Below are positions 6,011 to 62,745 of a stretch of DNA of 64,000 nucleotides, piece by piece. A program made the position numbers and the translations under genes. The notes below the pieces were generated by a model. That model was not told the DNA's origin. It did no database searches and worked only from the letters and a program-made list of their open reading frames with translations. The DNA comes from Kiritimatiellia bacterium (GTDB lineage: Bacteria > Verrucomicrobiota > Kiritimatiellia > RFP12 > UBA1067), in the NCBI GenBank assembly GCA_017427485.1, contig JAFRSR010000142.1, positions 1,862-65,861 of the forward strand, given 5' to 3'. The number at the start of each line of letters is the position of its first letter. Positions within the stretch are counted from its first letter, which is position 1.

Positions 6011-9000
6011 ATGAAATCACATGTATTCCTCTTTCTTGTGGTTGTCGCGGCTTGCGCGACCCTTCCGGCGCGGGCGGCGCTGACGGTGACGGCGACGAAC
6101 GGCGTGGAGTCGCTCACGCTGACCTTCGACGCAGCGGCGGACGTACGCGAGCTGTGGTGCGCGTGGGACGACGCCGACAAGGGCGCGGGTTTCGCCGACT
6201 GGGCGGAGAGCGAGCGCGTGGCGATCGTCGCGGCCGACGAGACCGCGCTCACGGTGGCGCTCCCGAACGACGCACGGCGCGCGGCCTACGCGCGGTTCTT
6301 CCTCTTCGAAGGCGGCGCGTCGTACCCCTGCGCGTTCATCCGCGGCACCGGCACGCAGTACCTCAACACGGGTTATTTCGCGACGCCGAAAACCTCCATC
6401 GGCATGGAATTCGAGCTGGAGGACCTGTTTACGGTGCAGCAGATCGTCTTCGGCTCGGAGGGCTCGACGTCCATCGTGCGCGCGTACATCAACGGAAACG
6501 GACTCTGGGCGTGGGCGTTCATCGACGGCGCGACCGGCAACTGGAAGTCGAGCGACGTTCCGTTCGATCATCGGCGGACGCTCATCACGCTGGACGGCTA
6601 CAACGACCTCTATTCCATTTCCGTGGACGGCGTGGCCGTTCATAGCGAGGCGATCTCCGCTGCCGTCGCCGACACCAAGCGCACGGCGACGTGCGACGTG
6701 CCGATCTACCTGCTCGCCAGCCGGAATACGCAAGGCGGCGACGTGGGGCAGATCATGAAGGCGAAGTTCTACGGAGCGACGATCGATGAGGAGGGCGTGC
6801 GCCAGCACACCTACGTGCCGTACGTCTCCGCCGGCGTGGCGGGCGCATATGACAGTGTGGCGGACGCGTTTCTCGGCAACGTGGGCACGGGCGAGTTCGT
6901 GCCGGGCGGCCGCGGCGGCGACGTCTCGGGCGCGGAGGCGGGCGAGGCGCTCGACCTCGACGCGGTGCGGGGCGGCTCGGCCGGGCCGGAAACGGTCTAC
7001 GTGAACGTCGGCAAGACAAAGACGGTGGTCTTCGACGGACCGGCGACGATCGACTACAGGCTGGTGAAGATCGGCGAAGGCACGCTCGTCCTGGAGGGGA
7101 CGCGCACGTTCAACCATGACGTGATCATCTCCAACGGCATCCTGCGCGCGAACTGGGCGACGAGCGGCCTCGCCGGCACGCATCTGGGAATCTGCAACGC
7201 CGGCTCAAACGCCAATCTCTGCTATTTCCAGGAGACGAGCGACTCGTTTACGGCGTCGGTGGCGGCGAGCGGTCCGGGCACCGTGGAACTGTACGGCTAT
7301 TCGGGCGTCATTCCGTTCCAGCAGGACCTTACCGTCAATTTCGGCGGCGACGGGCGGACGGTCACGCGCGGCGCGAACGGGTTCAACACGACCAGCTTCT
7401 GGCTGACCCACAGCAGCTCGACGAACAGCACGACATTCGTGAACAACATCGACTTCGCGGGCCTGAACCTCGAGAGCAAGGGCAGCGGCAGCGGCACGGC
7501 GTTCTACACGGGGTACATTACGAACTCGACTTCCACGACGGCGGGCGTCTGGAACTTCTGGGGCGGCAATATTGTACTTGTAGGCTCGAACGGCGGACGG
7601 ACGAGAGACGTCTATGGTTATCAGGTCAACAACCATGCCTCGACGCTCATCTTCTCGAACGCGACTATCGAGGTCACGCACGACTTCCTCGCGGGCGCCG
7701 ACAACAACCAAGTGTCGCACACGACGCTCGTGAACTGCAGGCGGTACGCGCAATCGGCGAACTGGGACTTCATCTCCGGCGCAGCCGGCACCACGCTGGT
7801 GATCGACGGTGGCTCGTTCGAGCGTCCGAACGCTTACATGATCGTCGGTTATACGAGCAACAGAAAGGGAACGTGCACCGTCACGAACGATGCCGTTGTC
7901 TCGAGCCAACAGATCCGGACATACCCCGACGGATGCTTCCGTCAATGCGGAGGAACTTCCTCGTTCCTACGCCTGATTCAGTACGGCGGGCTTGTGGAGT
8001 TGCACGGCGGCCGGATGAACCTGACGTCGGGCGAACAGCATGTGGGGTCTTCCAGTCCGCAAGGTCCCTCGACTTTCGCGATGTACGGCGGCACGCTGTA
8101 TGTCTCGGACGGACAGAACATGCAGATCGGTTCCTACTCGAAGGGCTGGTTCCATCAGGAGGGCGGAGAAGTGTCCGTCCCGAACTATTTCGCCGTGGGC
8201 CGATACGCGGCCGGCGACGGGCGACTGGACGTCCACGGCGGCACGTTCACGCACCGTAACCAGGGTGCTATCCGCATCGGGGAGGACGGTACGGGCACGG
8301 TGTCAGTGGCGAACGGCGGCACGTTCGTCGATCTGGCCGGCAACTCGCCGATGTCCGCGAACGCCAAAGGCGTGGGCACGCTCTTCCTCTCGCCCGACGG
8401 CGTATTTGAGACGCCCCAGCTCAAGGCCGGAGCGGCCGGGCGCGACAACGGCGTCGTTTTCAACGGTGGCACCCTGAAGCTGCGGACGAACGGCTCGCCG
8501 AGCGCGTTTCTCGACTCGACGCTCACGCGCGTGACGGTATCGCCCTACGGCGGCGCAATCGACACGAACGGCAAGGGCGACTTCACGCTGAACCGCGCGC
8601 TGGGTCCGACGACGGACGCGGGCGACCTCTCGGAGGCGCTGGCGCACCGCTGGAGCTTCAAGGGCGGCTCGCTCGTGGACAGCGTCGGCGGCCTGACGGC
8701 GACGGTGGGCGGCACCGTGGACCTGGAGGACGGCGCGGTGCGTCTGAAGGGGACATCCCGAGGAACGAGCTGCGTCAACCTCGGCACGGACCTGCTGCCG
8801 ACGGACGGGCGCGGCGCGACGATCGAGGTGTGGGTGACGCCGCTTTCGTTCAAGAGCTGGGCACGCGTGATCGACTTCGGCCCGGGAAGCGAGGGCACCG
8901 GAAAGGACCTCTACTTCTCGTTCAACGACGGAAATAACACGGCAGAGGCCCGGGCTCACTTCCGCACCATCAATGCGACTCTTAACTGCTATATCCCGTC

Positions 9001-9874
9001 GGCTGCCATCGCGCCGGGACGCACCTACCACATCGCGCTCGTGTTCGCGCCGCAGCCGGACCGCAAGATGCTCTGCACGGCGTACATCCGCGACGCAGAT
9101 ACGGGCGACCTGCTGAACACGGGCAGCGGGACACAGGCCCTAGACTGGACGCTGGGTGACATCCCGCAGACGAACGGATGCTGGCTGGGCCATTCGAGCT
9201 ACGCCAGCAACAACGACCCCGACGCGCGCTACCACGAGGTGCGCATCCACCACCGCCCGATGTCGGCCGCGCAGGCAGAGGCGAGCTGTCTGGCGGGTCC
9301 TGACGCCGTGTACTACTTCCGCAAGAAGGGCGCGGGCACGCTCACGATGACGGGCGCGAACACGTACACGACCGGCACGGCCGTGGACGGCGGCACGCTG
9401 AAGCTCGCGAGCGGCGCGACGCTGCCCGCGACGGAGATGTGGGCGGGCTCGGGGGCGACGCTCGACCTGAACGGCACCTTGCAGACGGCCCGCGAGCTGG
9501 GCGGCACGGGCACGGTCAAGGGCGGCACGCTCGCCGTAACGGACACGATCCAGCCGGGCGGACGCAAGACCGTCGGCACGCTCACGGTGGACGGCACGTC
9601 GCTCACGTCTGGCACCCTCGTCGTGGACACCGGTGCGGACGGTACGTGCGACTGCCTCGCGGCGACGGGCACGCTCGACCTCTCGAACCTCTCGCTCGCG
9701 CTCAGCGACGTGACGGCGCTCGACGAAACGAAAATCTACACGATTGCCACGGCGCCGAGCTTCACGGGTTCGTTCGCCGGCGTAACGCTCCCGAACCGAA
9801 AGTGGCGCGTCTCCGTCGCCGATACGAAGGTGAAGCTCGTCTACGCCAACGGAACGGTACTATATTTCAGGTAG
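6011..9874 (+). CDS. giant secreted beta-helix protein with autotransporter-associated beta-strand (PATR) repeats and a LamG/ConA-like domain
   Basis: Signal peptide MKSHVFLFLVVVAACATLPARA. PATR-type repeat KKGAGTLTMTGANTYTTGTAVDGGTLKL. LamG-like block HRWSF...IEVWVTPLSF...WLGHSSY...YHEVRIHHRPMS. It is a paralogue of 16366-19947 and ends ...NGTVLYFR. Confidence 0.8.
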   Translation: MKSHVFLFLVVVAACATLPARAALTVTATNGVESLTLTFDAAADVRELWCAWDDADKGAGFADWAESERVAIVAADETALTVALPNDARRAAYARFFLFEGGASYPCAFIRGTGTQYLNTGYFATPKTSIGMEFELEDLFTVQQIVFGSEGSTSIVRAYINGNGLWAWAFIDGATGNWKSSDVPFDHRRTLITLDGYNDLYSISVDGVAVHSEAISAAVADTKRTATCDVPIYLLASRNTQGGDVGQIMKAKFYGATIDEEGVRQHTYVPYVSAGVAGAYDSVADAFLGNVGTGEFVPGGRGGDVSGAEAGEALDLDAVRGGSAGPETVYVNVGKTKTVVFDGPATIDYRLVKIGEGTLVLEGTRTFNHDVIISNGILRANWATSGLAGTHLGICNAGSNANLCYFQETSDSFTASVAASGPGTVELYGYSGVIPFQQDLTVNFGGDGRTVTRGANGFNTTSFWLTHSSSTNSTTFVNNIDFAGLNLESKGSGSGTAFYTGYITNSTSTTAGVWNFWGGNIVLVGSNGGRTRDVYGYQVNNHASTLIFSNATIEVTHDFLAGADNNQVSHTTLVNCRRYAQSANWDFISGAAGTTLVIDGGSFERPNAYMIVGYTSNRKGTCTVTNDAVVSSQQIRTYPDGCFRQCGGTSSFLRLIQYGGLVELHGGRMNLTSGEQHVGSSSPQGPSTFAMYGGTLYVSDGQNMQIGSYSKGWFHQEGGEVSVPNYFAVGRYAAGDGRLDVHGGTFTHRNQGAIRIGEDGTGTVSVANGGTFVDLAGNSPMSANAKGVGTLFLSPDGVFETPQLKAGAAGRDNGVVFNGGTLKLRTNGSPSAFLDSTLTRVTVSPYGGAIDTNGKGDFTLNRALGPTTDAGDLSEALAHRWSFKGGSLVDSVGGLTATVGGTVDLEDGAVRLKGTSRGTSCVNLGTDLLPTDGRGATIEVWVTPLSFKSWARVIDFGPGSEGTGKDLYFSFNDGNNTAEARAHFRTINATLNCYIPSAAIAPGRTYHIALVFAPQPDRKMLCTAYIRDADTGDLLNTGSGTQALDWTLGDIPQTNGCWLGHSSYASNNDPDARYHEVRIHHRPMSAAQAEASCLAGPDAVYYFRKKGAGTLTMTGANTYTTGTAVDGGTLKLASGATLPATEMWAGSGATLDLNGTLQTARELGGTGTVKGGTLAVTDTIQPGGRKTVGTLTVDGTSLTSGTLVVDTGADGTCDCLAATGTLDLSNLSLALSDVTALDETKIYTIATAPSFTGSFAGVTLPNRKWRVSVADTKVKLVYANGTVLYFR

Positions 9875-9927: not shown

Positions 9928-10098
9928 ATGACGGAACTGGACAAGAAACTGGCGAAGGCCGCGCGCGAATGCAGCGCGGATGCTGTCCGTCGTACCTTTG
10001 AGGCAGGGCGTCCCATTACGATCCTGGTCGGGAACAGGGTCGTCCGCAGATGGGCTGACGGGCATGAGGAACTGGTTGAGGAGCTGCCGCCGCGATGA
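9928..10098 (+). CDS. small putative antitoxin (56 aa) paired with the zeta-toxin-like kinase
   Basis: MTELDKKLAKAARECSADAVRRTFEAGRPITILVG... The stop overlaps the next start (ATGA at 10095-10098). Size and position are typical of a type II antitoxin. Confidence 0.55.
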   Translation: MTELDKKLAKAARECSADAVRRTFEAGRPITILVGNRVVRRWADGHEELVEELPPR

Positions 10099-10835
10099 TC
10101 AGCCGCTTTCGAATGGTCGCCGGGCCGAACGGCTCCGGAAAATCAACGCTTGCGGCGTGGCTTGCGCGCGATTACGCGGTCAACTTCTACACGATGCTCA
10201 ACGCCGACGACGTCTATGCCCTCGTGCAGCGCACGCGGGCGTACTTCGCGCCATTTCCGATTGACGGCGCATCGCTCGCCGCGTATGCCGGGAGCACGAG
10301 CTACGCGGACGCGGAGAAGGGGCGGTTTTCGTCGGGCGAGATTTCGGTCGATGCGGACTGCGTGCGCTTTGCCACGGCGGAGTCGGTCAATTCATACACC
10401 GTTGCCCTGCTCGTCAACTTCCTGCAGGACGAATGCATCAACCGCGGCATCAGCTTTTCGCAGGAGACCGTGTTCTCCCATCCGTCCAAGGTGGCCGCGC
10501 TTGCCAAGGCGAAGGCGGCGGGATTCCGTACGTATCTGTACTATGTTGCCACGGACAGCGCGTCCATCAACGCCGACCGCGTCGCCGAACGGTACGCGCT
10601 CGGCGGTCACGACGTGCCGCCGGACAAGATCGTCGCCCGATACGTCCGTTCACTTGCGAACCTGCCAGATGCAATGCCGCATCTTTCGCGGGCTTTTTTC
10701 TTCGACAACTCCGGCGCGGAAATGCGCTACCTCGCAAGTTATTCCAAAGATTCCGGTATAGACATCCTCGTGCCTGAAGCCGATTTGCCGCAGTGGTTCA
10801 AGAAGTCTGAGATTGTGAAGAAGGTGCAACTATGA
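10095..10835 (+). CDS. zeta-toxin family / COG4185-type P-loop kinase
   Basis: Walker A VAGPNGSGKST. Downstream SFSQETVFS...AGFRTYLYYVATDS...ADRVAERYALGGHDVPPDKIVARY...FFFDNS matches the zeta-toxin/COG4185 layout. Confidence 0.7.
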   Translation: MISRFRMVAGPNGSGKSTLAAWLARDYAVNFYTMLNADDVYALVQRTRAYFAPFPIDGASLAAYAGSTSYADAEKGRFSSGEISVDADCVRFATAESVNSYTVALLVNFLQDECINRGISFSQETVFSHPSKVAALAKAKAAGFRTYLYYVATDSASINADRVAERYALGGHDVPPDKIVARYVRSLANLPDAMPHLSRAFFFDNSGAEMRYLASYSKDSGIDILVPEADLPQWFKKSEIVKKVQL

Positions 10836-13420
10836 AGCGACTGATGTTGTTTGCAGTTTTGGCGGTCGGGGCAAGCATGCCCATCATGGCGGCGATGCTG
10901 GACCTGGCGGGGACGGACATGACCGTCTCCGACGTGACGGCTCTCGCGTCGTACGACGGCGTGACGAACTCGTCCGCAACCGCCGCCACGCTCACGTTCA
11001 ACATCGCCGACGACCAGTCGTACGACCTGACCATCGGCGGCAACGTCGCGGTTGTGAAGGCTGGCGCGGGCACGCTCTCGCTCGGCAAGGCCGACCGCAC
11101 CTTCACGGGCGGCACGACGGTCTCGCAGGGCAAGCTCGTCCTTGCCGAAAACAACGCCAAGGCCCTCGGCACGGGCACCGTCACCGTCGCGGACGGCGCG
11201 ACGCTCGACTTCAACGGCGCGTTGAGCGGGGCGCACGGCGCCATTTCATCGGTCTACGCCGAGGGCGCCGGCGTCGACGGCAACGGCGCGCTCGTCAACT
11301 CGGGCGCGAATCACGTCAACAAGTACCTGTCGTCATCCGGCGCATTGTACCTGACGGGCGACCTGCTCTTCAACCCCTCGAACCGCCTTGATGTTGGGAA
11401 CATCTACCCGCAAGGGCATACGTTCCGGCTCAAGGGCACGGGCACGAATTCAATTACGGCACGCGTCAACCACTACTACAACCCACAGGGTGGCGACATC
11501 AGCATCGAGCATGGCACGTATCTGGCGTACGAGGGGGATTCGTTCGGCAATACCGCGAACAAGAGCACGGTCTATCTGCGCGGCGGCGTATTGTGTGTTT
11601 GGCGTGACGGCGACACCTCCCTCAGCGCAAGCCCGGTCGTGGTCGAGCAGGCTTCGACGGTTCAGTCGTTGGCCAGAAACGCCAACCGCAACATGTACTT
11701 CGCAAAGCCTGTTACCGTGAATGCGCCGTTGACGCTTGCCCGTGCATCTGGCAGTACGACTGGGCATATCGCCACCATCGGCGTCAACAACAGCGAGAAC
11801 GCACTGGCCGGCACAGGTCCAATCACGGTCGAGGGGGGCGTGAAGTTCACGTACGCGGTCGCGTACACGTCGGCGAAGAACACGTATTCGGGTCCAATCA
11901 TTGTCAAAAACACCGGAACGCTGGGCATCGGCGCGGGGAAACGCGGTGCGCTGACCTCGGGATCGGTCACCAACAACGGCACGGTCGCCTACAACTGCAC
12001 GAAGGACGTAACGGTCTCGCCGAGGGAGATTGTCGGCGGCAAGTTCACGCTCCCGACGGACCTTGTGCCGGCCGACGGCGCGCAGTCCGTGACGCTGACC
12101 GTGAACGGAACCGTTCTCACGAACGTGGCGACGACGGTCTACCGCAATGCCTTGACGCTGGACGGCGGCGCGAAGGTGGACGGTGGCTCGATCATCCTGG
12201 GGGAGTCGTCGGACTATGCCGGACAGCTGACGCTCAAGAACTGCCTGGTGACGAACATGACGGCGAACTCGTCAATCTACCGCGGCGTGCTGACGCTCGG
12301 CAACGGCGCACGCTGGGTCGCGCCTGAGCAGCGCATGAACCTCTCTTGGCAGTCCAAGTGGGAATACACCAACACGGTCGCCACGCTTAACATCGAAGAG
12401 GGGAGCGACACGACGATCGGGTATCTCAACTGCGGCCATAACGGCGGATTCCCGTACACCAACATCGTCGACGGCGCGGAGGTCATCTATCATGTGAACA
12501 TGACGGGTATCGTGAACCAGGCGGGCGGCACGTTCCGTACGACGGGTGCCTATCCGGCCAATGGCGAGCCGGACGGCATCCGCCTCGGCCACTACACGTA
12601 TGCGCGGACGTTCTGGAACATGACGGGCGGCAAGCTGATCGTCGGCGAGCCCTACCGCCTCAACATGGCCATCGCCGGACAGTCCACGTTTAACCTGTCG
12701 GGCGGCGAAGTGTTCACCACCGAACTGAACCTAAGCGGACGTTCGAACGACACCGGGTATGGCATCTGGAACATGACCGGCGGCGAGCTGAACATCGGCA
12801 CGAACGGCATCCGCATCTCGACTTCGAAGAACGTCGCCTATCAAGTTAACCTCGGCGGCGGCATTGTGCGGGCCTCGTCGGAGCGGGGCTTCTCGTCCAA
12901 CTTGAGGATGAACCTCACCGGCGCGAGCGGAACGAACGTGACGTTCGACACGACGAACGCGACGGTGACGCTCTCGGGCGTCCTCTCCGGCGCAGGCGGC
13001 CTCGCGAAGGCGGGCACGGGCACGCTCACGCTCTCTGGCGCGAACACCTACGCGGGCGCGACGCGTCTCCTGGACGGCACGGTCGCCTTCACACAGGCGT
13101 ATCCGGGCGGGGACCTGGAGCTGCCCGCCGCCGCGACGGGCGGAACGTCCGCACCGCTTCTCACAGCGCCATCCTTCGCGTTCGCCGCCGGGAAGGGCGT
13201 GCGCGTGACGGAGGCGGACGCGCTCGACGCCTCCACTTTCGGCCCGTCGAAGACGCTCGTCTCGTCCTCTGCGGCGCTGGCGGCGCTGCCGTCGCTCACG
13301 CTGGTGGCCGCGGACGGCACGCCGCTCGCGAACGACGGCAAGTGGATGCTCTACCTGACGAACGGCGGCAAGACGCTGAAGTTCGGTCCCGTGCGCGGCA
13401 CAAAGATTCTTCTGCGGTAG
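10832..13420 (+). CDS. secreted beta-helix protein with PATR repeats
   Basis: Signal peptide MKRLMLFAVLAVGASMPIMAA. Repeats VKAGAGTLSLGKADRTFTGGTTVSQGKLVL and LAKAGTGTLTLSGANTYAGATRLLDGTVAF. The start overlaps the toxin stop (ATGA at 10832-10835). It ends ...RGTKILLR. Confidence 0.8.
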   Translation: MKRLMLFAVLAVGASMPIMAAMLDLAGTDMTVSDVTALASYDGVTNSSATAATLTFNIADDQSYDLTIGGNVAVVKAGAGTLSLGKADRTFTGGTTVSQGKLVLAENNAKALGTGTVTVADGATLDFNGALSGAHGAISSVYAEGAGVDGNGALVNSGANHVNKYLSSSGALYLTGDLLFNPSNRLDVGNIYPQGHTFRLKGTGTNSITARVNHYYNPQGGDISIEHGTYLAYEGDSFGNTANKSTVYLRGGVLCVWRDGDTSLSASPVVVEQASTVQSLARNANRNMYFAKPVTVNAPLTLARASGSTTGHIATIGVNNSENALAGTGPITVEGGVKFTYAVAYTSAKNTYSGPIIVKNTGTLGIGAGKRGALTSGSVTNNGTVAYNCTKDVTVSPREIVGGKFTLPTDLVPADGAQSVTLTVNGTVLTNVATTVYRNALTLDGGAKVDGGSIILGESSDYAGQLTLKNCLVTNMTANSSIYRGVLTLGNGARWVAPEQRMNLSWQSKWEYTNTVATLNIEEGSDTTIGYLNCGHNGGFPYTNIVDGAEVIYHVNMTGIVNQAGGTFRTTGAYPANGEPDGIRLGHYTYARTFWNMTGGKLIVGEPYRLNMAIAGQSTFNLSGGEVFTTELNLSGRSNDTGYGIWNMTGGELNIGTNGIRISTSKNVAYQVNLGGGIVRASSERGFSSNLRMNLTGASGTNVTFDTTNATVTLSGVLSGAGGLAKAGTGTLTLSGANTYAGATRLLDGTVAFTQAYPGGDLELPAAATGGTSAPLLTAPSFAFAAGKGVRVTEADALDASTFGPSKTLVSSSAALAALPSLTLVAADGTPLANDGKWMLYLTNGGKTLKFGPVRGTKILLR

Positions 13421-13431: not shown

Positions 13432-13471
13432 AAATGTCGCGAAATTGAGAAAACGGAATTTCGCGACATTT
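13432..13471 (+). terminator. perfect 15-bp inverted repeat (hairpin) after the surface-protein gene
   Basis: aaatgtcgcgaaatt (13432-13446) and aatttcgcgacattt (13457-13471) flank a 10-nt loop. The element starts 12 nt after the stop and is followed by the T-containing tract tttctaattt. Confidence 0.55.
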
Positions 13472-13494
13472 CTAATTTACAACTCAGAAAAACG

Positions 13495-13503
13495 TGGTAT
13501 ACT
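13495..13503 (+). promoter_or_regulatory. extended -10 box (TGGTATACT), leaderless geometry
   Basis: tggtatact is followed by 7 nt and then the in-frame ATG 13511, with no SD sequence. Confidence 0.45.
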
Positions 13504-13510
13504 ACATGCC

Positions 13511-14989
13511 ATGTTGAAGAAACAAAATATTGAAACGCATAATTCCGTTCAATTCATCGGTCGCAAGGAGTATCTTGAAGACTTGGAATCGCTCTGGCGG
13601 AAAGCGACGAGTTCGCTAATCGCCTGTCGCGGGAGACGGCGAATTGGCAAGTCGACCCTGATACGCGAGTTCGCCCGCCGGACATCCAGCGCCTACATCG
13701 AGATTGAAGGGTTGCCGCCGGACAAGGAGATGACCAACCAGCGGCAGCTGGACCATTTCGCGGAGGCGCTTGCCGCACAGTCGGACGCGCCGAACGAACC
13801 GTTGTCGAACTGGATCGAGGCGTTCCACCGGCTTGACGGGCAAATAGGCGATGACCGGCGCACCGTGGTTCTTCTGGACGAGATTTCATGGATGGGCGGA
13901 TACGACATCAACTATCCGGGCGCGCTGCGCACGGCATGGGAGACGTTCTTCCACCGCCACCCACGGCTTGTCGTTGCCATCTGCGGTTCCGTTTCGGCGT
14001 GGATCAAGGAGAACATCCTCGACAACACCGGCTTTACCGGGAGATTCTCGCGCGACTACGTTCTGCCGGAACTGGACCTTGCGGAATGTGCCGCATTCTG
14101 GCGAAGTGCGAAGGACCGGGTGTCGGTTCGCGAGATATTCGACGTGCTGTCCGTCACGGGCGGCATCCCGCGTTACCTCGAAGAGATAGATCCCGGACTC
14201 TCGGCAGAGGAGAACATCAGGCGAATGTGCTTTTCCACGAGCGGCGAGCTCTACAAGGATTTCGATGCGATATTCAGTCCGATATTCGGCGAGGACGCCG
14301 TGCTGAAGCGTCGCGTGCTGGAGGCGTTGGCGGACGGCCCGATGTCCGGCGTGGAAATCTCCAATCGCCTCGAGTTGAAGCGCAACGGCCGCGTGTCGTC
14401 CGTGCTTCGGGAACTGAAGGAGGGCGGGTTCGTGTCCGACGATCCTGGCCTCAACCCCGAGACGGGCAAGGATATGCGGACGGGCAAATACCGCCTGAAG
14501 GACAACTACACCCGCTTTTACCTGAAGTACGTCCAGCCGCGCAAGACGCAGATCGAGTCCGGCAGTTTCCGCTTCGCGTCGCTTGGCACGCTGCCTGAAT
14601 GGAATGCGGTCATGGGACTCCAGTTCGAGAACCTGATCGTCAACAACGCCATGTCGCTGATTCCGTACCTGCATCTCGGCAATTCCATCGTGGAGTCCGC
14701 CGCTCCCTACCGCAACGCACGGCGAGACGCGGAAGGCAACAAGGGCGGATGCCAGATAGACCTGTTGATACAGACGCCCATGACGGCGTATGTCGTGGAG
14801 GTCAAGCGGAAACGCGAGATTGACGAGTCGATCATCTCCGAAATGCAAGGCCGCATCGCGCGGCTGCCGTTGCGCAGGGGCATGACGGCGCGTCCCGTCC
14901 TGGTGTACGAAGGCGAGCTCGCGCCCTACGTCGAAGGTTCGGGATATTTCGACGCCGTCATCCCCGCCGCGAAGCTTCTTGGCCGATAG
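13511..14989 (+). CDS. Arch-ATPase (ATPase_2)-type P-loop NTPase with a DUF234-like C-terminal region
   Basis: FIGRKEYLEDLESLW...GRRRIGKSTLIREF (Walker A). VVLLDEISWM (Walker B). C-terminal winged-helix/DUF234-like part. The gene is visibly more A/T-rich than its neighbours. ATG 13511 is preferred over the listed 13445. Confidence 0.65.
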   Translation: MLKKQNIETHNSVQFIGRKEYLEDLESLWRKATSSLIACRGRRRIGKSTLIREFARRTSSAYIEIEGLPPDKEMTNQRQLDHFAEALAAQSDAPNEPLSNWIEAFHRLDGQIGDDRRTVVLLDEISWMGGYDINYPGALRTAWETFFHRHPRLVVAICGSVSAWIKENILDNTGFTGRFSRDYVLPELDLAECAAFWRSAKDRVSVREIFDVLSVTGGIPRYLEEIDPGLSAEENIRRMCFSTSGELYKDFDAIFSPIFGEDAVLKRRVLEALADGPMSGVEISNRLELKRNGRVSSVLRELKEGGFVSDDPGLNPETGKDMRTGKYRLKDNYTRFYLKYVQPRKTQIESGSFRFASLGTLPEWNAVMGLQFENLIVNNAMSLIPYLHLGNSIVESAAPYRNARRDAEGNKGGCQIDLLIQTPMTAYVVEVKRKREIDESIISEMQGRIARLPLRRGMTARPVLVYEGELAPYVEGSGYFDAVIPAAKLLGR

Positions 14990-15024
14990 CCCCCCATTGG
15001 TGGTTTGCCCATTCGGGCGAACTT

Positions 15025-15033
15025 TGCTATACT
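15025..15033 (+). promoter_or_regulatory. extended -10 box (TGCTATACT) of the second copy of the promoter/5' module
   Basis: gctatactttccgcaaaggaaaaggtgacgg is homologous to gctataatttgcggcaaggagaagctgacg at 16336. Confidence 0.4.
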
Positions 15034-15070
15034 TTCCGCAAAGGAAAAGGTGACGGAAGGAGCACGCCGC

Positions 15071-15121
15071 ATGACGGAACTGGACAAGAAACTGGCAAAG
15101 GCCGCCCCGAAGGCGCTGTGA
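15071..15121 (+). pseudogene. 5' relic of the antitoxin gene (16 codons, then TGA)
   Basis: atgacggaactggacaagaaactggcAaaggccgc matches 9928-9962 with one difference. It encodes MTELDKKLAKAAPKAL followed by a stop. Confidence 0.7.
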
Positions 15122-15157
15122 TTCTCGTTCGCTAGATAAACGACAACGGAGATAAAA

Positions 15158-16249: not shown

Positions 16250-16334
16250 TGATATTTAGAAAAGTCTAGTCCTTCGTGTCGGTCGCGACAAGCGCGACCG
16301 CTCCCGCTGGCGGTTTGCCCAAGAGGGCGATGTA

Positions 16335-16343
16335 TGCTATAAT
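16335..16343 (+). promoter_or_regulatory. extended -10 box (TGCTATAAT), third copy of the promoter/5' module
   Basis: tgctataat is followed by a short leader carrying the SD aaggag (16351-16356) and then ATG 16366. Confidence 0.5.
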
Positions 16344-16365
16344 TTGCGGCAAGGAGAAGCTGACG

Positions 16366-38173: not shown

Positions 38174-38247
38174 GGACAGAGGACAGATGACAAAGGACAA
38201 AGGATCGCTGTTCCAGCCTTTGTCTGCTGTCCTTTGTCCTTTGTCCT
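38174..38247. repeat. GGACAGA/GGACAAA heptad inverted-repeat hairpin
   Basis: Left arm ggacaga ggacaga tgacaaa ggacaaa gga. Right arm cctttgtctgctgtcctttgtcctttgtcct. It lies directly after the stop at 38155, so it may act as a terminator or intercistronic structure. Confidence 0.85.
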
Positions 38248-38278
38248 AAAAATTTTGAAAACCAATAAGGAAAAACAA

Positions 38279-55626: not shown

Positions 55627-57735
55627 ATGGTCTGCAAAAAAACGATTGGTCTTTTTTCGGCGTTTCTCGCCGTTGCCTGCGCCCATGGCGCCGCGCTGGA
55701 TATCGCGCCGTTCTCGCACACCTGCGCGTTCACGGTGTCGGGGTACACCGGCGCAAGCGCGTTGGAAGACTTTCCCGTCCTGATCCGCATCTCGCAGTCG
55801 ATCGCTGGATTCTCGTACGCCGACTGCGCGGCGAACGGCGCCGATCTGCGGTTCACGGACGCCAGGGGCGAACTGCTGCAGCACGAGATCGAGTCGTGGA
55901 ACACGTCGGGGGAATCCGTCGTGTGGGTGAAGGTGCCCCGCCTCTCCGGAACTACGACCGCCGTGCACATGTACTACGGCGCAGGCGCCTCCGCGACGTT
56001 GCCGGCGGTCACGGCGAGAAACGTGTGGACGAAGTACGTCACGGTGATCCACGGCGGTTCCGGCATCAGCGACTCTTCGCCCAAGGCGCTTGCCGTCGCG
56101 AACGGCGGCGGCGTGACCGCCACGGCGGGCAGCGGCGTCGTGGGCGGCGGCTTGAACAAGTCCGCCCGAAACACGATCGGCGTGAACATTCCCAATCTCG
56201 TGAAGAACAACAAGCTTTCCGACCCGGGGCTTTTCACCTTCTCCGGATGGTTCAAGCGCGATGCCACGGGAACAACGTCGATTCTGGCGGCAAGCAAGAA
56301 CGCGTGGAACGGGACGGGCTTTCTGCTCCTCTGCGAAGCTGGGAAGCACATGGACGTCGCCGTTCAAACCACCCATCAAGGCACTGGCGGCAAGGGCGCG
56401 CTCGTCATCGGGCAATGGGCGCACGTGGCGTTCTCGTACGACGCGGTCGGCAAGCTGAACACGTATTTCAACGGCGCGCAGATTTATTCGAACGCGTCGG
56501 CGAAGGCGCTGAGCCATGAAGACAGAGCTTCCTGGTCTGTCGGGTCGTACGCGATGAAGGCCTCGACCGACAGCTTCGCGGGCGACATGGACGAAATCCG
56601 CTTCTACGACGGCATCGCGTCCGCCGACTGGGTGAAGGCCGAGAACGACTCCGTGACGAACGCCAGCTTCGCGGTGGCGGGCGCGGCGACGGCGAACACC
56701 GCCTGGGACTGTGCGGGCGGCGTCGTGTCCGCCCGCCAGACGCCCGACGGCATTCTGGTCAACGGCACGCTCGCGCGCATCGACTCGTCGGCTTCGCGCG
56801 TTTCGGTTTCGCTCAAGTGGGGCGAGACGGAGGCTCTGGAGGGCGGGACCGTCACGGTGGGCGTGTTCACCGAGCCGGTGGCGCTCTCGGCGACCTTCCC
56901 CGGCACGACGGCGGACGCGACGTACCATTTCGCCTTCGTGCTGACGCCCAACCAGGGGAACGTGGTGACCTCGCCGGAGTCGACGTTCCGCAGGATCGGA
57001 ACCGAGGCGCTCTGGCGTCCGCAGTCGGCCCATGACACGTGGGACACCGAGTCGTGGCAGCTGGGCGCGCAGATAACCGGGTTCTCGGACGGTTGGCCCG
57101 TGGCGTTCGACGGCGCGGAGCAGAACTACATGGCGACGGTCAAGGTGCCCAGCGCGGTGTCGTCGTCTTCCATGACCGTGGGCGGCGCGAAGAACTATGT
57201 GTTCACGGGCAACAGCCTCATCCTGGCCGACGTGCTGGTGAAGACCGGTTCCGGCACGCTGAAGCCGCAGACGGCGTTTGCGGAACCGCTCAACTTCGTC
57301 GTGCGCGAGGGCGTGGTCGCGTACGACGCCACGTTCAACTTCGGCAGCATCGCCACGGCGGGCACGTCCACGCTCGTCGTCGTCGGCGGGGAATCCGCGG
57401 CGCGCCTCTCCACCACCAAGGAGTTTTCCTTCGGCAGGGGCTCGGGCACTTCCGCGAACGTGACCGTCAAGACGAACGGCACGGTCGTCATGGAGTCGAG
57501 CGTATGGCTTCGCTTCGGCACCAGCCCCGGCTGCACCTGCGACGTCACGATCGAGCGGGGCGGCCTTTTGGAGAGCGGCTGGCTCATGTTCGGCTCGCAG
57601 GCGGCCGTCTGCAACGCACGGGTCGCCGGCACGGTCGTCGTGCGTTCGATGCCTCTTGGCGTGGGCGAGGGCAGCGACTCCTCGCTCGTGCTCGAGCCGG
57701 GCGGACGCATCAAGGCGCGCGGCGTGCAGATGTGA
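55627..57735 (+). CDS. N-terminal segment of a giant surface protein (signal peptide, DUF2341, LamG, beta-helix), ended by an in-frame TGA
   Basis: SD aagaggag followed by ATG 55627. Signal peptide MVCKKTIGLFSAFLAVACAHGA. DUF2341 block EDFPVLIRIS...DLRFTDARGELLQHEIESWNTSGESVVWVKVP...VHMYYG. LamG block WAHVAFSYD...MDEIRFYDG. TGA at 57733-57735. Confidence 0.75.
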   Translation: MVCKKTIGLFSAFLAVACAHGAALDIAPFSHTCAFTVSGYTGASALEDFPVLIRISQSIAGFSYADCAANGADLRFTDARGELLQHEIESWNTSGESVVWVKVPRLSGTTTAVHMYYGAGASATLPAVTARNVWTKYVTVIHGGSGISDSSPKALAVANGGGVTATAGSGVVGGGLNKSARNTIGVNIPNLVKNNKLSDPGLFTFSGWFKRDATGTTSILAASKNAWNGTGFLLLCEAGKHMDVAVQTTHQGTGGKGALVIGQWAHVAFSYDAVGKLNTYFNGAQIYSNASAKALSHEDRASWSVGSYAMKASTDSFAGDMDEIRFYDGIASADWVKAENDSVTNASFAVAGAATANTAWDCAGGVVSARQTPDGILVNGTLARIDSSASRVSVSLKWGETEALEGGTVTVGVFTEPVALSATFPGTTADATYHFAFVLTPNQGNVVTSPESTFRRIGTEALWRPQSAHDTWDTESWQLGAQITGFSDGWPVAFDGAEQNYMATVKVPSAVSSSSMTVGGAKNYVFTGNSLILADVLVKTGSGTLKPQTAFAEPLNFVVREGVVAYDATFNFGSIATAGTSTLVVVGGESAARLSTTKEFSFGRGSGTSANVTVKTNGTVVMESSVWLRFGTSPGCTCDVTIERGGLLESGWLMFGSQAAVCNARVAGTVVVRSMPLGVGEGSDSSLVLEPGGRIKARGVQM

Positions 57736-57813
57736 AACAACAACCCCACGTGGGGCGGACACACCGGACACGCCACGCTGCACGTCCATGACGGCACGCT
57801 CGAGCTCTATCCC

Positions 57814-60800
57814 GTGGCGGCGTACACCGACTATCCGATCATCAACACGACGATGCGCGTCACGTACGAGGACGCCATCACGTTCGACATCCCCGCCGGC
57901 GGCTCCTCTTTCCTCGCGGCATCGGTCACCAACGTGACCGCGGGCGCCACCGGGCACTTCGTGAAGACGGGCGGCGGCGACCTCACCGTCACGGGCGACG
58001 TGGGCGGTATCACCGGGGCGATCGACGTCCTCGCCGGGCGCCTCATCTTCAACCAGGCGTTCGCGGAGGGCGCGGACGTGACGGTCAACCTCTCGGAGGA
58101 GGGCGCCGTGGGCTGCAACGTCGCGGGCGGCGCCGTCGGCATCCTCAAGTACATTCCGAAGGACTCCCGCGGCACGCTCATAATCCACGACAACAACGCG
58201 AACGAGACGATCGACCTGAGCGAATACCCGTACCTCAAGGTGGCCGTTTGCGCGGGCGGCGGATTCAGCGGCACCGTCATCCCCTACGGGAACCACTACG
58301 TGTTCGACATGTTCGGCAGGGAAGGCGCGCTCAACGTGCCGCTGGCGGACGCGGACGGCGTGCCCGCGCGCATCACGCTGACCGATTCCCTCGGCGGCGG
58401 CGCGCTCGTGCTTGCGGCGGACAACTCCGGAATGTCAGGCCCCATCGAAGTCTCCGGCGACGTGCGCCTCCGCCTCGCCCATGCGCAGGCGGCCGGCACG
58501 GGCAACATCACGCTCGGCGAGGGATCGTCGATCGACATCGCCGCAGCAGTCGGCGCGAACTTCCTCTCGACGCGCGTGACGCAGGACTCGCGTCCGGCGT
58601 TCGTGTTCATCAGCGCGGGCGGCGAGGCGACCGACGTGGATCTCTCGCGCTTCCCGGGATGCCGCCTCGGCACGGTGGGCAGCGTCTCCGTCACGCAGAC
58701 CGGCGCCGTGACTCCGCGCGACGGCGAGTACGTCCTCGGCGGCGGCGACACGCCTCACACCTCCAACTACTCCGGCCTCACGCCCGGCGTTCTCGTTGAC
58801 GTTACGGGAGAATCCAGGAAGGTCGTGGTCGACCGCCCCGGAATGATCAACCTCTCGAACACGGCGAACGCCTACTCTGGCGGCACCGTGGTGACGAACG
58901 GCGGCAAGGTGTACGTGGCGGGTACGGACGGCTTCGGCGCCGTGCCTGCCGCGTTAGACGCGCACAACATCGAGGTGGACGGCGGCGTCGTGCGCCAAGG
59001 CAACATCAACACCACGCTCGACGCAAAGCGCGGCCTTTGGGTGGGCGCGGGCGGCATGACCCTTCATCCCTGGGGCGGCTACACGCTCACCATTCCCGGC
59101 GGACTGGGCGGCACGGGCCCAATCTCCATCACGGACAACGGACATCTCACGCTCCCCGGCCCGTACAACACCTACAACGGCGCGATAACCATGAGCAGAA
59201 CGGCCTCGATCCTCACGATCGGCGGCGCGGACGCGTTCTCCTGGGTGTCGACGGGCGGCATCTCCACGATCGGAACGGTCGCGTTGAACGCTTCGGGCGA
59301 CGCCACTTTCGCGGACACGGTGAGCGGCACCGGCGGGCTGAAGAAGCAAGGCGCGGGCACGCTCACGCTCACTCGCGCGCACGCCTTCACCGGCGCCACG
59401 ACGGTCGAGGCGGGCACGCTGCGGCTCGCCGACGGCGGACGGATCGCCTCGACCTCCGCGATCAACAACGATTCCGACATCTTCGTCGACTTCGCGGGCA
59501 GCGCAAAGGACGCCTTCGGCAACGCGCCCATCTACGGTCCCGGCACGGTCAGGTTCGCCGCCGGCAGCAACACGACGATCGACAGACCCTTGCCGGGCGT
59601 GGGGAATCTTGCCGCGGAGAACGGCGCGACGCTCGACTACAAGGTTGCCGGATCCGCGTCCGTCACGGTGGATGACGCCACGCTCGCGCTTTACGGAACC
59701 GGCGGCGGCACGGCCGTCTCGGGCTTCGCCGACTTCAAGCGGAACGGCACCGTGGAGATGGTTGGCGAGGACGGGAACGAGATACAGCTCTCGTCCGCGG
59801 AGACGTACAAGGGCGGCACCGCTTTCTGGCGGAAACGCGTGAGCGTGACGCGTCCGTGGGTCGCGAGCTTCACCTACAAGACCGTCGCCCCGCCGGCCAG
59901 CCCCGCGGACGGCTTTGCGTTCTTCCTCCACAACGATTCCAGGGGACTCAACGCGGCAGGGGGAACCGGCGGCGGCATCTGCGCGAACGGCATCACGCCG
60001 TCCATCGGCGCGGCGTACAACATCTACAATGCCGACACGGCGGGATGGCTCGTCAACGGCGCCAAGACGAGCATGACGAACCTGCACACGTCCGCCGGCG
60101 ACATCTCCATCCAGGACGGCATCGACGTATGCGTGACGTATGACGGCGCGGGCAAGCTCGTGCATCACGTCTACTCGGGTTTCAAGTACGCGGCGCGCAC
60201 GAATTCCGTCAACCTGCAGGAGGCGCTGGGCGCGCCCACCGCCTGGATCGGCTTCTCCGGCGCGACGGGCGGTTCCTACTGCGACCAGCGCATCGCGAAC
60301 TTCCGCTTCTCGCAGGCGGACGTCGCCGGCGCGGTCGACATCGAGCCGTCGGGCGACGCCTCGAAGTGGCGGCTCAACGGCAACGCCGCGTACGAGGCGG
60401 TCGAGGGCACGCCCGCGTTCCGGCTCACCGACACGTCCAATTACCAGACGAGCGCCGTGACGCGCCTCGAGCGCGTGTACGTGGGCGCGCCGTTTAAGAT
60501 CAGCGGCACATACCATTTCACCGCCCCCGCCGGCAACGCGGCCGACGGCGCGGCCGTGTTCCTGCACGTCAACTCGCCCATGACCGTCGCCGCGCACGGC
60601 GCTTCGCTGGGCGTGGGCGGGGCTGGCTTCAACAATGCGCGGTTCACCACCGCCTTTGGATGGGGGATCAAGATCTATCCTTCGCCTGCGATCGCGGCCA
60701 TCACGAACGGGGTGATCGGCACGGCCGTCGCGGACCTCAACGGCATCGATCCGAAGAACATGAATCCGGTGGACTTCACGGTCTCGTACGTGCCGGGACG

Positions 60801-61491
60801 GCTCTCGTTCGAAGTGACGCAGGACGGCAAGACGGCAACGTTCTCGCAGGACGTGAATCTCGTGCAGAAGTTCGGCGAGAATTTCGCCTACCTCTCGTTC
60901 TCCGGCGGCACCGGCGGGTACAATGCACGGCAGTACGTCTACGATCTTTCGCTGGAGTATGAGGCCGACGATTCGTACGGCGCGGCAGGCTACGGCGACG
61001 TGGCATTCAGGGGCAGCGACACGTTGCGCATCGCGGCCGGGACCAACGAGGTCGCCGAGGTGAGAACCGTCACGTTCGTGGACAATGCCATCGTGGGCGT
61101 GCGCGCGTCCGGCAATGCCAACCTGCCGTACGTCTTGCGGGCGGACCGCATCGAGTTCGACGTTACCGGCGACGGCGCCACTCCCTCCATCAACCTTGCG
61201 GCGAACGGTTCGGCGGCGGGCACGCTCCAGATCGGCGCGATTGCGTACGGCGCGAAGCCGTCCCTGCTCAAGATCACGGGCGCGGCGAGCGGAATCGACG
61301 GCGCGAAGGTGAGGATCGAGATGCCACTGTTCAACGGGATCGTGAAGCTCCTTGACCTCACGGACGCGACGGGTCTTTCGCTTGAGGACTTCGAGCTCGT
61401 CACCGAAACGCGGCCGCCGGTCAAGCTTGACCTGAAGGACGGCATCCTCAGCGCGATTCACGACTCCGGCACTCTCCTGTTCTTCCGCTGA
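57814..61491 (+). CDS. C-terminal segment of the same giant surface protein (beta-helix/PATR repeats plus two L-type-lectin-like domains)
   Basis: It is in the same frame as 55627-57735, and codons 57736-57813 are open. There is no signal peptide of its own. PATR repeat LKKQGAGTLTLTRAHAFTGATTVEAGTLRL. Lectin-like blocks ...ADGFAFFLHNDS... and ...ADGAAVFLHVNS... It ends ...SGTLLFFR. Confidence 0.7.
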   Translation: MAAYTDYPIINTTMRVTYEDAITFDIPAGGSSFLAASVTNVTAGATGHFVKTGGGDLTVTGDVGGITGAIDVLAGRLIFNQAFAEGADVTVNLSEEGAVGCNVAGGAVGILKYIPKDSRGTLIIHDNNANETIDLSEYPYLKVAVCAGGGFSGTVIPYGNHYVFDMFGREGALNVPLADADGVPARITLTDSLGGGALVLAADNSGMSGPIEVSGDVRLRLAHAQAAGTGNITLGEGSSIDIAAAVGANFLSTRVTQDSRPAFVFISAGGEATDVDLSRFPGCRLGTVGSVSVTQTGAVTPRDGEYVLGGGDTPHTSNYSGLTPGVLVDVTGESRKVVVDRPGMINLSNTANAYSGGTVVTNGGKVYVAGTDGFGAVPAALDAHNIEVDGGVVRQGNINTTLDAKRGLWVGAGGMTLHPWGGYTLTIPGGLGGTGPISITDNGHLTLPGPYNTYNGAITMSRTASILTIGGADAFSWVSTGGISTIGTVALNASGDATFADTVSGTGGLKKQGAGTLTLTRAHAFTGATTVEAGTLRLADGGRIASTSAINNDSDIFVDFAGSAKDAFGNAPIYGPGTVRFAAGSNTTIDRPLPGVGNLAAENGATLDYKVAGSASVTVDDATLALYGTGGGTAVSGFADFKRNGTVEMVGEDGNEIQLSSAETYKGGTAFWRKRVSVTRPWVASFTYKTVAPPASPADGFAFFLHNDSRGLNAAGGTGGGICANGITPSIGAAYNIYNADTAGWLVNGAKTSMTNLHTSAGDISIQDGIDVCVTYDGAGKLVHHVYSGFKYAARTNSVNLQEALGAPTAWIGFSGATGGSYCDQRIANFRFSQADVAGAVDIEPSGDASKWRLNGNAAYEAVEGTPAFRLTDTSNYQTSAVTRLERVYVGAPFKISGTYHFTAPAGNAADGAAVFLHVNSPMTVAAHGASLGVGGAGFNNARFTTAFGWGIKIYPSPAIAAITNGVIGTAVADLNGIDPKNMNPVDFTVSYVPGRLSFEVTQDGKTATFSQDVNLVQKFGENFAYLSFSGGTGGYNARQYVYDLSLEYEADDSYGAAGYGDVAFRGSDTLRIAAGTNEVAEVRTVTFVDNAIVGVRASGNANLPYVLRADRIEFDVTGDGATPSINLAANGSAAGTLQIGAIAYGAKPSLLKITGAASGIDGAKVRIEMPLFNGIVKLLDLTDATGLSLEDFELVTETRPPVKLDLKDGILSAIHDSGTLLFFR

Positions 61492-61779
61492 ACCTGCACC
61501 AGAGGTGAAGAAGCCCGCCGCCAAGCCCGTGGCAATGAAAAGAGTCGGAAAGTTTGAGAGCTTGAAACATTATAAAGGATGAAAATGGCCATGAGAAACA
61601 TATTCGTGATCGGAGCCGTTGCGACCGTGTCGGGGCTTGAGGAAGACCAGTGCGTCTGCGGACGGTTCCGCGCCGTGAACGCCTACGGCGAGGCGTGGTC
61701 GGCGCCGCTGGCCGGTCGGGCGTAGACGGAGCCGACCGGGCGTTTCGCGCGCATCGTCGTCACGAACCTCGCGGAGGGG

Positions 61780-62745
61780 GTGGCGCTGGCGGACTTTCCG
61801 CTGTGCGTCAAGCTGCCGGCGAGCGTCGGCCTGCCGGACGACCCTGCGGGGCTGCGCTTCGTCGGCTCCAACGGCAACGCGCTGGCTTTCGAGATCGAGA
61901 CGTGGGACGCGGCAGGCGAAAGCGTCGTGTGGGTGCGCGTGCCCAGCCTCGCGCAGGGGACGACCCTCCGCGCCCTCTGGAGCGCTACGACGGCGGCGCA
62001 CGGCGCGGCGCACGCCGACACCGTGTGGAACTCCGAATACAAGGCCGTCTACCATCTGGCGTCGGGGAACGACTCCTCTCCCAACGCGCGGCATTTCGAG
62101 ACCGACACGCTCAGCGTTGACGCGGCCGGTGCGGTCGGGCGCGGACGTTCGTTCGCGGGAACGGCTTCGAAGCACATGACACGGCATGCGCCGTGGTTGG
62201 CCGACCTTTCCGGCGCGTTCACCATCTCGGGATGGATCCGTCCGGCCGCGGATGCGACCGGGCAGGCATACATGATGCAGATGTACAACGACTATGCGCA
62301 GTTCGCCATCCTGTACAACTGGGACGGCGGGCGCGTGCTCCAGTTCTTCCATGGCTACGAAATGAACGCATACGGCAGCGGCGCCCAAGGCGAAGACATG
62401 CGCTACACGGCGTCGCCGATGACGATCCCCGACGACGGGGACTGGCACCACTTCGCCTATTCGTACGACCAGGAGGCGTTCAGCGTCTATCTGGACGGCG
62501 AGCTTCTGCGCTGCCTGCCGCGCGAATACGGCCTGGGTAGCGGGCAGCCCGGCCTGCAAAACGTCAACTTCGAACTGGGCCAGACGAGGGGAAGCGGCAA
62601 TCGGTTCAAGGGCGATCTCGACGAGATTCGTTTCGAGTCCGCGCGGCGTTCCGATGCCTGGCTCCGCGCGTGCTATCTGAGCCAGAAGGGCGCGTTGGTC
62701 TCGGTGAGGCCTGAGTCGGCCGGATTCAAGATCATCTTCCGCTAG
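61780..62745 (+). CDS. DUF2341 + LamG (Laminin_G_3) protein; the frame continues upstream to ATG 61585 across a TAG
   Basis: DUF2341 block LADFPLCVKL...GLRFVGSNGNALAFEIETWDAAGESVVWVRVP. LamG block WHHFAYSYD...LDEIRFESARRS. It ends ...AGFKIIFR. The listed GTG start has no signal peptide. Confidence 0.65.
   Translation: MALADFPLCVKLPASVGLPDDPAGLRFVGSNGNALAFEIETWDAAGESVVWVRVPSLAQGTTLRALWSATTAAHGAAHADTVWNSEYKAVYHLASGNDSSPNARHFETDTLSVDAAGAVGRGRSFAGTASKHMTRHAPWLADLSGAFTISGWIRPAADATGQAYMMQMYNDYAQFAILYNWDGGRVLQFFHGYEMNAYGSGAQGEDMRYTASPMTIPDDGDWHHFAYSYDQEAFSVYLDGELLRCLPREYGLGSGQPGLQNVNFELGQTRGSGNRFKGDLDEIRFESARRSDAWLRACYLSQKGALVSVRPESAGFKIIFR

Follow-up and report, generated by a model that had tools for sequence, protein, structure and literature searches.

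To our knowledge, each of the C-terminal sorting signals known until now (LPXTG, PEP-CTERM, GlyGly-CTERM, MYXO-CTERM and the C-terminal domain (CTD) of type IX secretion systems (T9SS)) has led to a dedicated machine. One class of these signals has a tripartite design composed of a signature motif (Pro-Glu-Pro in PEP-CTERM), a transmembrane helix and an Arg-rich cluster, and a 2023 survey of small C-terminal sorting signals covers tripartite ones only (10.1101/2023.06.07.544157). In the T9SS, the last 22 residues of the CTD, which form two strands, are enough to have a protein exported, and cargo deprived of its final few residues is no longer exported and stays trapped in the periplasm (PMC4804311). 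Here we describe a short C-terminal tail encoded in a 64,000-nucleotide stretch of the genome of a Kiritimatiellia bacterium (contig JAFRSR010000142.1 of assembly GCA_017427485.1; this whole stretch is called the window). Eight genes on the + strand, located between positions 6011 and 62745, end in G-x-x-[ILV]-Φ-[FL]-[RK]-stop (Φ, hydrophobic residue). The aligned sequences give the consensus (often Pro)-x-G-[T/L/M/F]-Φ-Φ-Φ-Φ-[R/K]-COOH. A short predicted beta-strand precedes it in many beta-helix proteins, and the two would form a hairpin. A C-terminal sorting signal as a class is known, but the architecture of this tail is unlike any described. Judged from its sequence properties, the tail has slightly better than even chances of being a lineage-specific tag for sorting or anchoring after Sec export, which would be read as a terminal beta-strand by a receptor encoded elsewhere. 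An earlier note on this DNA had proposed an undescribed C-terminal sorting or anchoring signal, and its eight quoted C-termini and stop positions were all correct upon translation of the open reading frames (ORFs).

Six of the eight genes are uninterrupted, and the clear Sec signal peptides previously noted in their products were borne out. The gene at 6011-9874 encodes a 1287-aa Sec-exported PATR beta-helix protein (tail GTVLYFR at 9851-9871, stop TAG at 9872-9874) and the gene at 10832-13420 an 862-aa Sec-exported PATR protein (GTKILLR at 13397-13417, TAG at 13418-13420). A further PATR beta-helix protein is encoded at 16276-19947, with a likely start at Met 16366 heading the signal peptide (GTAVIFR at 19924-19944, TAA at 19945-19947). 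The 805-aa Sec-exported protein encoded at 33558-35975 has no Pfam domain (GLTIIFK at 35952-35972, TAA at 35973-35975), and the 1061-aa Sec-exported protein encoded at 46251-49436 has four LamG domains (GMTILFR at 49413-49433, TGA at 49434-49436). The gene at 49925-53743, with a likely start at Met 49982, encodes a beta-helix protein of ~1250 aa (GTILIFR at 53720-53740, TGA at 53741-53743). The remaining two genes reach a signal peptide only through an in-frame stop, as had been recognized before. In the first, an in-frame TGA (57733-57735) splits an N-terminal part with a signal peptide and a region that resembles DUF2341 by eye (55627-57732) from a C-terminal part with PATR repeats and an L-type lectin domain (57736-61491; GTLLFFR at 61468-61488, TGA at 61489-61491); no orthologue of this interrupted gene was found by local tblastn. 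The second disrupted gene (61579-62745) consists of a short ORF at 61579-61722, which ends after a truncated signal peptide at a TAG (61723-61725), and an in-frame ORF with DUF2341 and LamG domains (61726/61780-62745; GFKIIFR at 62722-62742, TAG at 62743-62745). The in-frame stops at 57733 and 61723 could reflect pseudogenes, assembly errors or recoding, and the one at 57733 may also be a real stop.

The number of these tails exceeds the chance expectation. Among 278 stop-to-stop ORFs of at least 100 aa in the 64-kb window, nine matched the loose regular expression G..[ILVMFY].[FLIVMY][RK]$, and the per-residue frequency of the same pattern (8.9e-4) predicts about 0.25 terminal matches. All eight tail genes lie in a high-GC3 coding frame (GC3, GC content at third codon positions). 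The ninth match (14824-15135) was rejected as a chance match, since this Arg-rich ORF sits in a non-coding frame (GC3 of 0.49 versus 0.76 in the overlapping real gene). The tail codons vary among the genes (GGA/GGC, ACG/ACA/ACT, TTC/TTT and AGG/CGG/CGC/AAG) and all three stop codons are used, indicating that the peptide is under selection; a conserved DNA element at the gene ends is ruled out by the same differences.

The bodies that carry the tail are mostly unrelated to each other. The earlier note described them as different and for the most part not close paralogues, and our comparisons agree with this description: Pfam identified PATR, four Laminin_G_3, L-type lectin and DUF2341 domains, the proteins of 6011 and 16276 are the sole paralogue pair (41% identity), and in no other pair does the similarity extend beyond one PATR repeat of 40 aa. 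When the last 160 aa of the eight proteins were compared by MAFFT and BLAST, conservation was confined to the last seven columns. One shared C-terminal domain or a recent duplication is ruled out as the origin of the tail, because these regions have only the tail in common. The tail starts 11 residues past the end of the last LamG domain in the 46251 protein and 19 residues past it in the product of the 61780 ORF, and only 110-155 residues follow the last PATR repeat in the PATR tail proteins. After removal of the last 20 aa, the bodies of 43 tail proteins of at least 200 aa gathered in related genomes formed 15 clusters (any BLAST match) or 25 clusters (50% coverage). The domains found in carriers included PATR, LamG, GDPD phosphodiesterase, BspA-type leucine-rich repeat (LRR_5) and Flg_new_2, and the majority of carriers have no Pfam domain. 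The clustering indicates that the tail is a module independent of fold, present on at least 15 unrelated body families. Tail carriers range from 132 to 1742 aa, so the former description of all of them as giant does not hold.

The tail is also associated with the exact C-terminus and with export. Six-frame translation of Kiritimatiellia DNA (363,269 residues) gave 68 occurrences of a strict form of the motif, 40 of them exactly C-terminal, about 30 of these 40 having come from the DNA pattern used to select the loci; in the window alone, eight occurrences were terminal and three internal. Among 77 called genes, a crude rule scored a signal peptide in 12 of 13 tail proteins versus 22 of 64 others (Fisher’s exact test: p = 1.3e-4), and the sole tail protein scored negative resembles a mis-called start. 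No tail is found on cytoplasmic proteins or on secreted enzymes encoded nearby (GH20, GH39, a sulfatase, GDSL esterase and Tat oxidoreductases). The exported proteins without a tail are mostly enzymes, indicating that the tail marks a subset of exported proteins. None of the outcomes named in the earlier note as contrary to its proposal, namely a match to an existing sorting-domain model, a lack of enrichment in secreted proteins or of restriction to the C-terminus, and a single recently duplicated C-terminal domain, was observed when they were tested, and the proposal of a candidate undescribed signal is supported.

Conservation of the tail was evident in homologues of several window proteins. 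Orthologues of the 33558 protein (47-67% identity) end in GFLVIFR, GFMVIFR, GLTILFR, GMTVIFR, GLTVIIR and GLVLVIK. The 46251 family is large and consists of proteins of ~1050 aa with four LamG domains and the mature N-terminus (K/R)TVALWPL; a HMMER scan of 1.84 billion representatives recovered 88 clusters of this family at E < 1e-30. Tail statistics were obtained from 91 LamG-family cluster representatives in which LamG ended within the last 36 residues. Gly was found at position -7 in 80 of the 91 (88%) and R/K at position -1 in 83 (91%; R in 76%, K in 15%, Q/H rarely), and I/L/V/F/M residues were near-constant at -2 and -4 and usual at -3 and -5. The family with four LamG domains keeps the tail down to ~27% identity, and distant LamG relatives without the tail end directly after the LamG domain. 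Homologues of the 10832 protein retain G-T-x-Φ-Φ-Φ-[RKH] to ~30% identity. The Phe at -2 followed by a basic end, which had been taken as characteristic of the tail, is a strong preference and not an absolute rule, as relatives have V, F, L or I at -2 and rarely end in Q or H.

Related endings were seen in other proteins. The last residues of a small group of PATR proteins from another high-GC lineage read G-T-Φ-Φ-R-V-N or G-T-Φ-F-Φ-x-[FL]; such variant ends (G-T-Φ-Φ-R-V-N, WWGTLFLCF or GTVLFVL) are carried by proteins P0336, P0339, P0358, P0382 and P0385 and are encoded at 1-31 and 10001-12931 of L134. On a wastewater contig, neighbouring genes end in RWGTVLLLR and WWGTLFLCF. The variant ends, including the presence of both kinds on one contig, suggest lineage variants of the same device. 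BNR and LVIVD signal-peptide proteins (5323-8013 and 13218-14783 of L123; 16846-18948 of L126) end in ...GKWAVPLYFGVR, ...GKWAVAFFIK and ...GYAGVLLQK. These endings, with a hydrophobic run and a basic terminus at other Gly spacing, are possibly a looser form of the tag. Loci of the family with four LamG domains (L123, L129 and L130-L132) also contain genes for an AraC regulator, a lyase resembling dihydrodipicolinate synthase/NanA, an SSF transporter and BNR sialidase-like proteins, and this tail family may bind sialoglycans.

Kiritimatiellia are poorly studied and mostly uncultured bacteria, common in rumen, gut and digester, and are specialists in glycan breakdown. A DNA scan for GGCACSNNNNTSNTSTTCCGSTGA, the coding pattern of G-T-x-Φ-Φ-F-R-stop, covered a single representative genome of each GTDB species and gave at least 110 matches. 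Among the 110 matches listed, 36 closed, in frame, a high-GC3 ORF that was long or truncated by the contig, and all 36 were in Kiritimatiellia-type metagenome-assembled genomes (MAGs). These were labelled as Kiritimatiellae/Kiritimatiellia/Kiritimatiellaeota (14), ‘Lentisphaerae/Lentisphaeraceae’ (8), ‘Verrucomicrobia bacterium UBA3624’ (3), rumen or gut ‘uncultured bacterium’/‘bacterium’ bins (10) and a contig of a ‘Treponema’ bin (1). The other 74 matches listed were scattered over unrelated taxa and were mostly chance matches in short ORFs: 70 of them close ORFs of less than 180 aa (all but one less than 130 aa), and four close ORFs of more than 300 aa. Single MAGs had up to four matches to this narrow pattern among the matches listed, and the same loci contained five further tails that had not been selected by it. 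In other loci, four or five tail genes stand in tandem. Extrapolated from how densely the loci are packed with tail genes, and not counted directly, tail proteins would number on the order of a hundred per genome. The 33558 protein is identical to one from a ‘Kiritimatiellae bacterium’ MAG (locus tag IJL17_), and named homologues of the other window tail families likewise belong to Kiritimatiellae/Kiritimatiellia MAGs. Among the matches listed, the distribution indicates that the tail is specific to the Kiritimatiellia lineage and abundant there. Tail contigs in bins assigned to other phyla include L033 (‘Treponema’), P0063 (‘Latescibacteria’) and L006, L007 and others (‘Lentisphaerae’), and L033 shares synteny with a contig from bin RUG10884. 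The labels outside Kiritimatiellia may be due to errors in binning or naming, or may indicate a wider spread of the tag.

The structure models place the tail outside the folded domains. The AlphaFold2 model of the 46251 protein, built from a 70-sequence alignment, had a mean predicted local distance difference test score (pLDDT) of 89.7 and a predicted template modelling score of 0.87. In this model, the last strand of the fourth LamG domain (residues 1031-1039) is followed by a short helix and then by coil (1048-1061), and the last 11 residues have no secondary structure and a mean pLDDT of 62. Its folded part resembles the paired LG domains of laminin and neurexin as well as the domains with which clostridial neurotoxins bind gangliosides. 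For the 33558 protein (15-sequence alignment), a beta-helix was modelled at residues 20-698, and the last 105 aa (pLDDT of 30-47) contain the tail drawn as a low-confidence hairpin. A fold search with this model returned as best matches, none significant, the autotransporter passengers Ag43 and IcsA. In these models the tail thus behaves as a linear motif that is exposed and lies outside the core of any domain.

PEP-CTERM/exosortase, LPXTG, GlyGly-CTERM, MYXO-CTERM and PGF-CTERM signals are, like the tail, short, terminal, independent of fold and restricted to lineages, and have many cargoes per genome. No sorting-domain model of Pfam or NCBIfam (release 20, June 2026), however, matched the full proteins (E up to 0.1) or the isolated 60-aa tails (E up to 10). 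Neither proteins nor tails matched PEP-CTERM (TIGR02595 / PF07589) or the T9SS CTD models TIGR04183, TIGR04131 and PF18962 (Por_Secre_tail), and no tail matched LPXTG, GlyGly-CTERM, MYXO-CTERM or related NCBIfam models. At NCBI, the proteins are named ‘autotransporter-associated beta strand repeat-containing’, ‘LamG-like jellyroll fold domain-containing’ or ‘hypothetical’, without a sorting-domain label. We found nothing in the literature linking Kiritimatiell* names with PEP-CTERM or a C-terminal signal, and no description of the tail. Compared with PEP-CTERM, the tail lacks the PEP motif and the ~20-residue transmembrane helix, and has a single basic residue instead of the Arg cluster; with four or five hydrophobic residues and one R/K, it does not have the tripartite design. 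Proteins recovered by way of the PATR repeats of the 10832 protein differ in their ends depending on the lineage. The homologues from Kiritimatiellia carry the tail, distant PATR proteins of verrucomicrobial, planctomycetal and other origin carry PEP-CTERM (VPEPS...RRRR, PF07589), and in proteobacterial ones the C-terminus is an autotransporter barrel (PF03797) whose last residue is Phe or Trp. These differences suggest that the tail fills the slot of known anchoring or export modules, as one choice of anchor among several.

The T9SS CTD is similar to the tail in that its cargoes are large Sec-exported multi-domain surface proteins, tens to hundreds per genome, with the signal at the extreme C-terminus. 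The T9SS machinery genes are located away from the cargo genes, to which the situation of the tail can be likened. However, the T9SS signal is part of a folded immunoglobulin-like domain of 70-100 aa, whereas here ~10 residues follow LamG and are unstructured in the model. No T9SS-type folded beta-sandwich (~70-100 aa) precedes the C-terminus of the 46251 protein, and the last 105 aa of the 33558 protein are not confidently folded. In addition, T9SS hosts belong to the Fibrobacterota-Chlorobiota-Bacteroidota (FCB) group (Bacteroidota), whereas the host of the tail belongs to the Planctomycetota-Verrucomicrobiota-Chlamydiota (PVC) group. PorV, Sov/SprA, PorU and GldKLMN were not seen among neighbour annotations in ~0.5 Mb of scattered loci, which is a small sample. 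Type 1 secretion differs in that its signal works without an N-terminal Sec signal peptide, and tail proteins carry Sec signal peptides.

For the tag proposed here, the N-terminal signal peptide seen in the sequences would first direct the protein to the periplasm. A periplasmic or outer-membrane receptor encoded elsewhere would then read the exposed tail as a terminal beta-strand with a free basic C-terminus. Finally, the receptor would sort tail proteins to or across the outer membrane or retain them on the surface, and exported enzymes without the tail would be left behind. The tail would work on the same principle as the two final strands of the T9SS CTD or the beta-signal of outer-membrane proteins (OMPs), shrunk to a peptide of ~10-15 residues. 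The positions that are kept most strictly, the hydrophobic residues at -2 and -4 and the Gly at -7, would suit a strand that rests with one face in a groove or pairs with an edge strand. The tail cargoes of Kiritimatiellia are mostly non-enzymatic and adhesin- or lectin-like. A bolder and clearly less probable version, which we put forward only tentatively, is that the tail is the address label of a new pathway for outer-membrane export or surface retention, parallel to but unrelated to T9SS and exosortase. Such a pathway would handle approximately a hundred large adhesin- or lectin-like cargoes per genome (the extrapolated number) through a signal of ~10 residues that has neither a transmembrane segment nor a folded domain. 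If the tail is a sorting signal at all, about ten residues would be enough with neither a folded domain nor a membrane anchor, sequence alone would define which proteins make up the surface proteome of these bacteria, and phylogenetic profiling would have a clean handle on the receptor. A new annotation model would also be justified for proteins now called ‘hypothetical’ or ‘autotransporter-associated repeat’. The tail marks a large set of surface-type proteins in Kiritimatiellia of the gut and rumen.

The alternative that survives best is that the tail is the OMP beta-signal of this lineage and that the proteins are clients of the beta-barrel assembly machinery (BAM) or the translocation and assembly module, docked on BamA by strand augmentation; a variant is that the proteins might be kept in the outer membrane by their terminal strand or hairpin, or be passed on to a partner barrel. 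The beta-signal recognized by BamA/BamD is likewise a C-terminal strand with Gly followed by alternating hydrophobic residues, the G-x-x-Φ-x-Φ spacing of the tail is canonical for it, and strand augmentation is a natural model of recognition. The earlier note had set the tail apart from the beta-signal: this contrast holds for the basic last residue, but is weaker than claimed with respect to the spacing. The PATR repeats are also typical of autotransporter passengers, and the best, non-significant fold matches of the 33558 beta-helix were passengers of this kind. However, OMP beta-signals typically have an aromatic terminus, and any basic preference is at the penultimate position, the reverse of the order in the tail (PMC3582582), which ends in Arg/Lys in 91% of the LamG-family representatives. 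The carriers have no transmembrane beta-barrel according to Pfam (eight proteins) and the AlphaFold2 models, which show four LamG domains (46251) or a beta-helix with at most ~105 further residues (33558). Classical autotransporters (type Va secretion) share with the tail proteins the passenger-like PATR beta-helix bodies and Sec signal peptides, but their 12-stranded C-terminal barrel (PF03797) is absent from all eight, and the stretch after the last repeat is too short to form one. BAM is inhibited by free beta-signal peptides, so about a hundred such cargoes would be costly. The search for genuine OMPs of the lineage yielded little: phmmer with Escherichia coli BamA, TolC, LptD and BtuB found no homologue in ~0.45 Mb of Kiritimatiellia loci, no OMP-like ends were seen among the listed signal-peptide proteins without the tail, and twelve contigs looked up for OMPs had one annotated TonB-dependent receptor. 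Taken together, we regard the beta-signal explanation as improbable.

It is marginally less probable still that the tail is a cleavage and attachment signal, at which a PorU- or sortase-like transpeptidase of the periplasm or outer membrane would cut near Gly-Thr and attach the protein covalently to a lipid, lipopolysaccharide or glycan anchor. An invariant Gly and a strongly preferred Thr at a fixed distance from the end would suit such an enzyme, and the tail occupies the position of PEP-CTERM in homologous PATR proteins. All known small C-terminal signals are processed by an endopeptidase; the tripartite ones, however, need the transmembrane segment and Arg cluster for being held at the inner membrane, and the tail has neither (10.1101/2023.06.07.544157). 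Homology to sorting-domain models was not found, a candidate enzyme was not seen near the tail genes, and the Gly is equally well explained as a residue of a tight turn.

Several points weigh against a sorting tag. The signal-peptide comparison used a crude rule instead of SignalP, and the enrichment was obtained from ~0.5 Mb of partly tail-selected loci and not from whole proteomes. Variant last residues (Q, H, Y, N, F and L) exist, so the basic terminus is not absolute. Among the Pfam neighbours in 11 loci with called tail genes (~195 kb), no recurrent outer-membrane barrel or peptidase was found, and no barrel or peptidase was present among the families listed in the ORF Pfam summaries of the 36 pattern-match loci. 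The tail may also be a structural element that plays no part in sorting, either a C-terminal cap or edge strand stabilising beta-rich domains, or a segment through which surface proteins swap strands or aggregate to form a layer. Its sequence strongly favours a beta-strand, the strand that often precedes it would give a hairpin, and T9SS CTDs are known to dimerise by swapping their terminal strands (PMC4804311). On the other hand, the tail is found on at least 15 unrelated folds, the confident LamG model shows it as coil with lowered pLDDT outside the domain, relatives from other lineages fold with no such tail, and a cap needs neither an exact C-terminus nor a basic end. For these reasons a structural role seems distinctly unlikely. 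PDZ domains and tail-specific proteases bind free C-terminal strands, and the tail is exposed in the 46251 model, but a quality-control or turnover tag read by a periplasmic PDZ protease or chaperone (DegP/DegQ/Prc/Ctp type) is highly implausible, as canonical PDZ ligands end in a hydrophobic residue and not in Arg/Lys, degradation of about a hundred very large and costly secreted proteins makes little sense, and nothing in the data points there.

The window has a GC content of 62-69% across its length. Its housekeeping genes include tilS, an ABC-F ATPase gene, the citrate synthase gene, xseA and pyrB, and it also carries sugar-metabolism genes. A gene for a Zeta-toxin/AAA_33-like kinase (10095-10835) extends into the start codon of the tail gene at 10832, and this overlap suggests co-transcription. 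Archaeal-type ATPase genes (ATPase_2 / AAA_14-DUF4143) stand beside tail genes in the window (13445-14989) and in three related contigs (1611-2708 of L119, 5334-6728 of L129 and 5703-7145 of L138), and PF09820/PDDEXK_9 ATPases are likewise frequent in the loci found by the DNA pattern. At 62871-64000, another beta-helix-like protein with a signal peptide (MKSVKMLAWAVVAATSAALPAMAATV...) extends past the window end, where its C-terminus lies. Two Tat-dependent oxidoreductases are encoded in the window. Just upstream of the citrate synthase gene, two adjacent genes encode Tat-signal proteins, a xylose-isomerase-like TIM barrel protein (37127-38155) and a GFO/IDH/MocA oxidoreductase (38234-39679), and the order of this pair and citrate synthase is kept in other contigs (e.g. 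locus L001).

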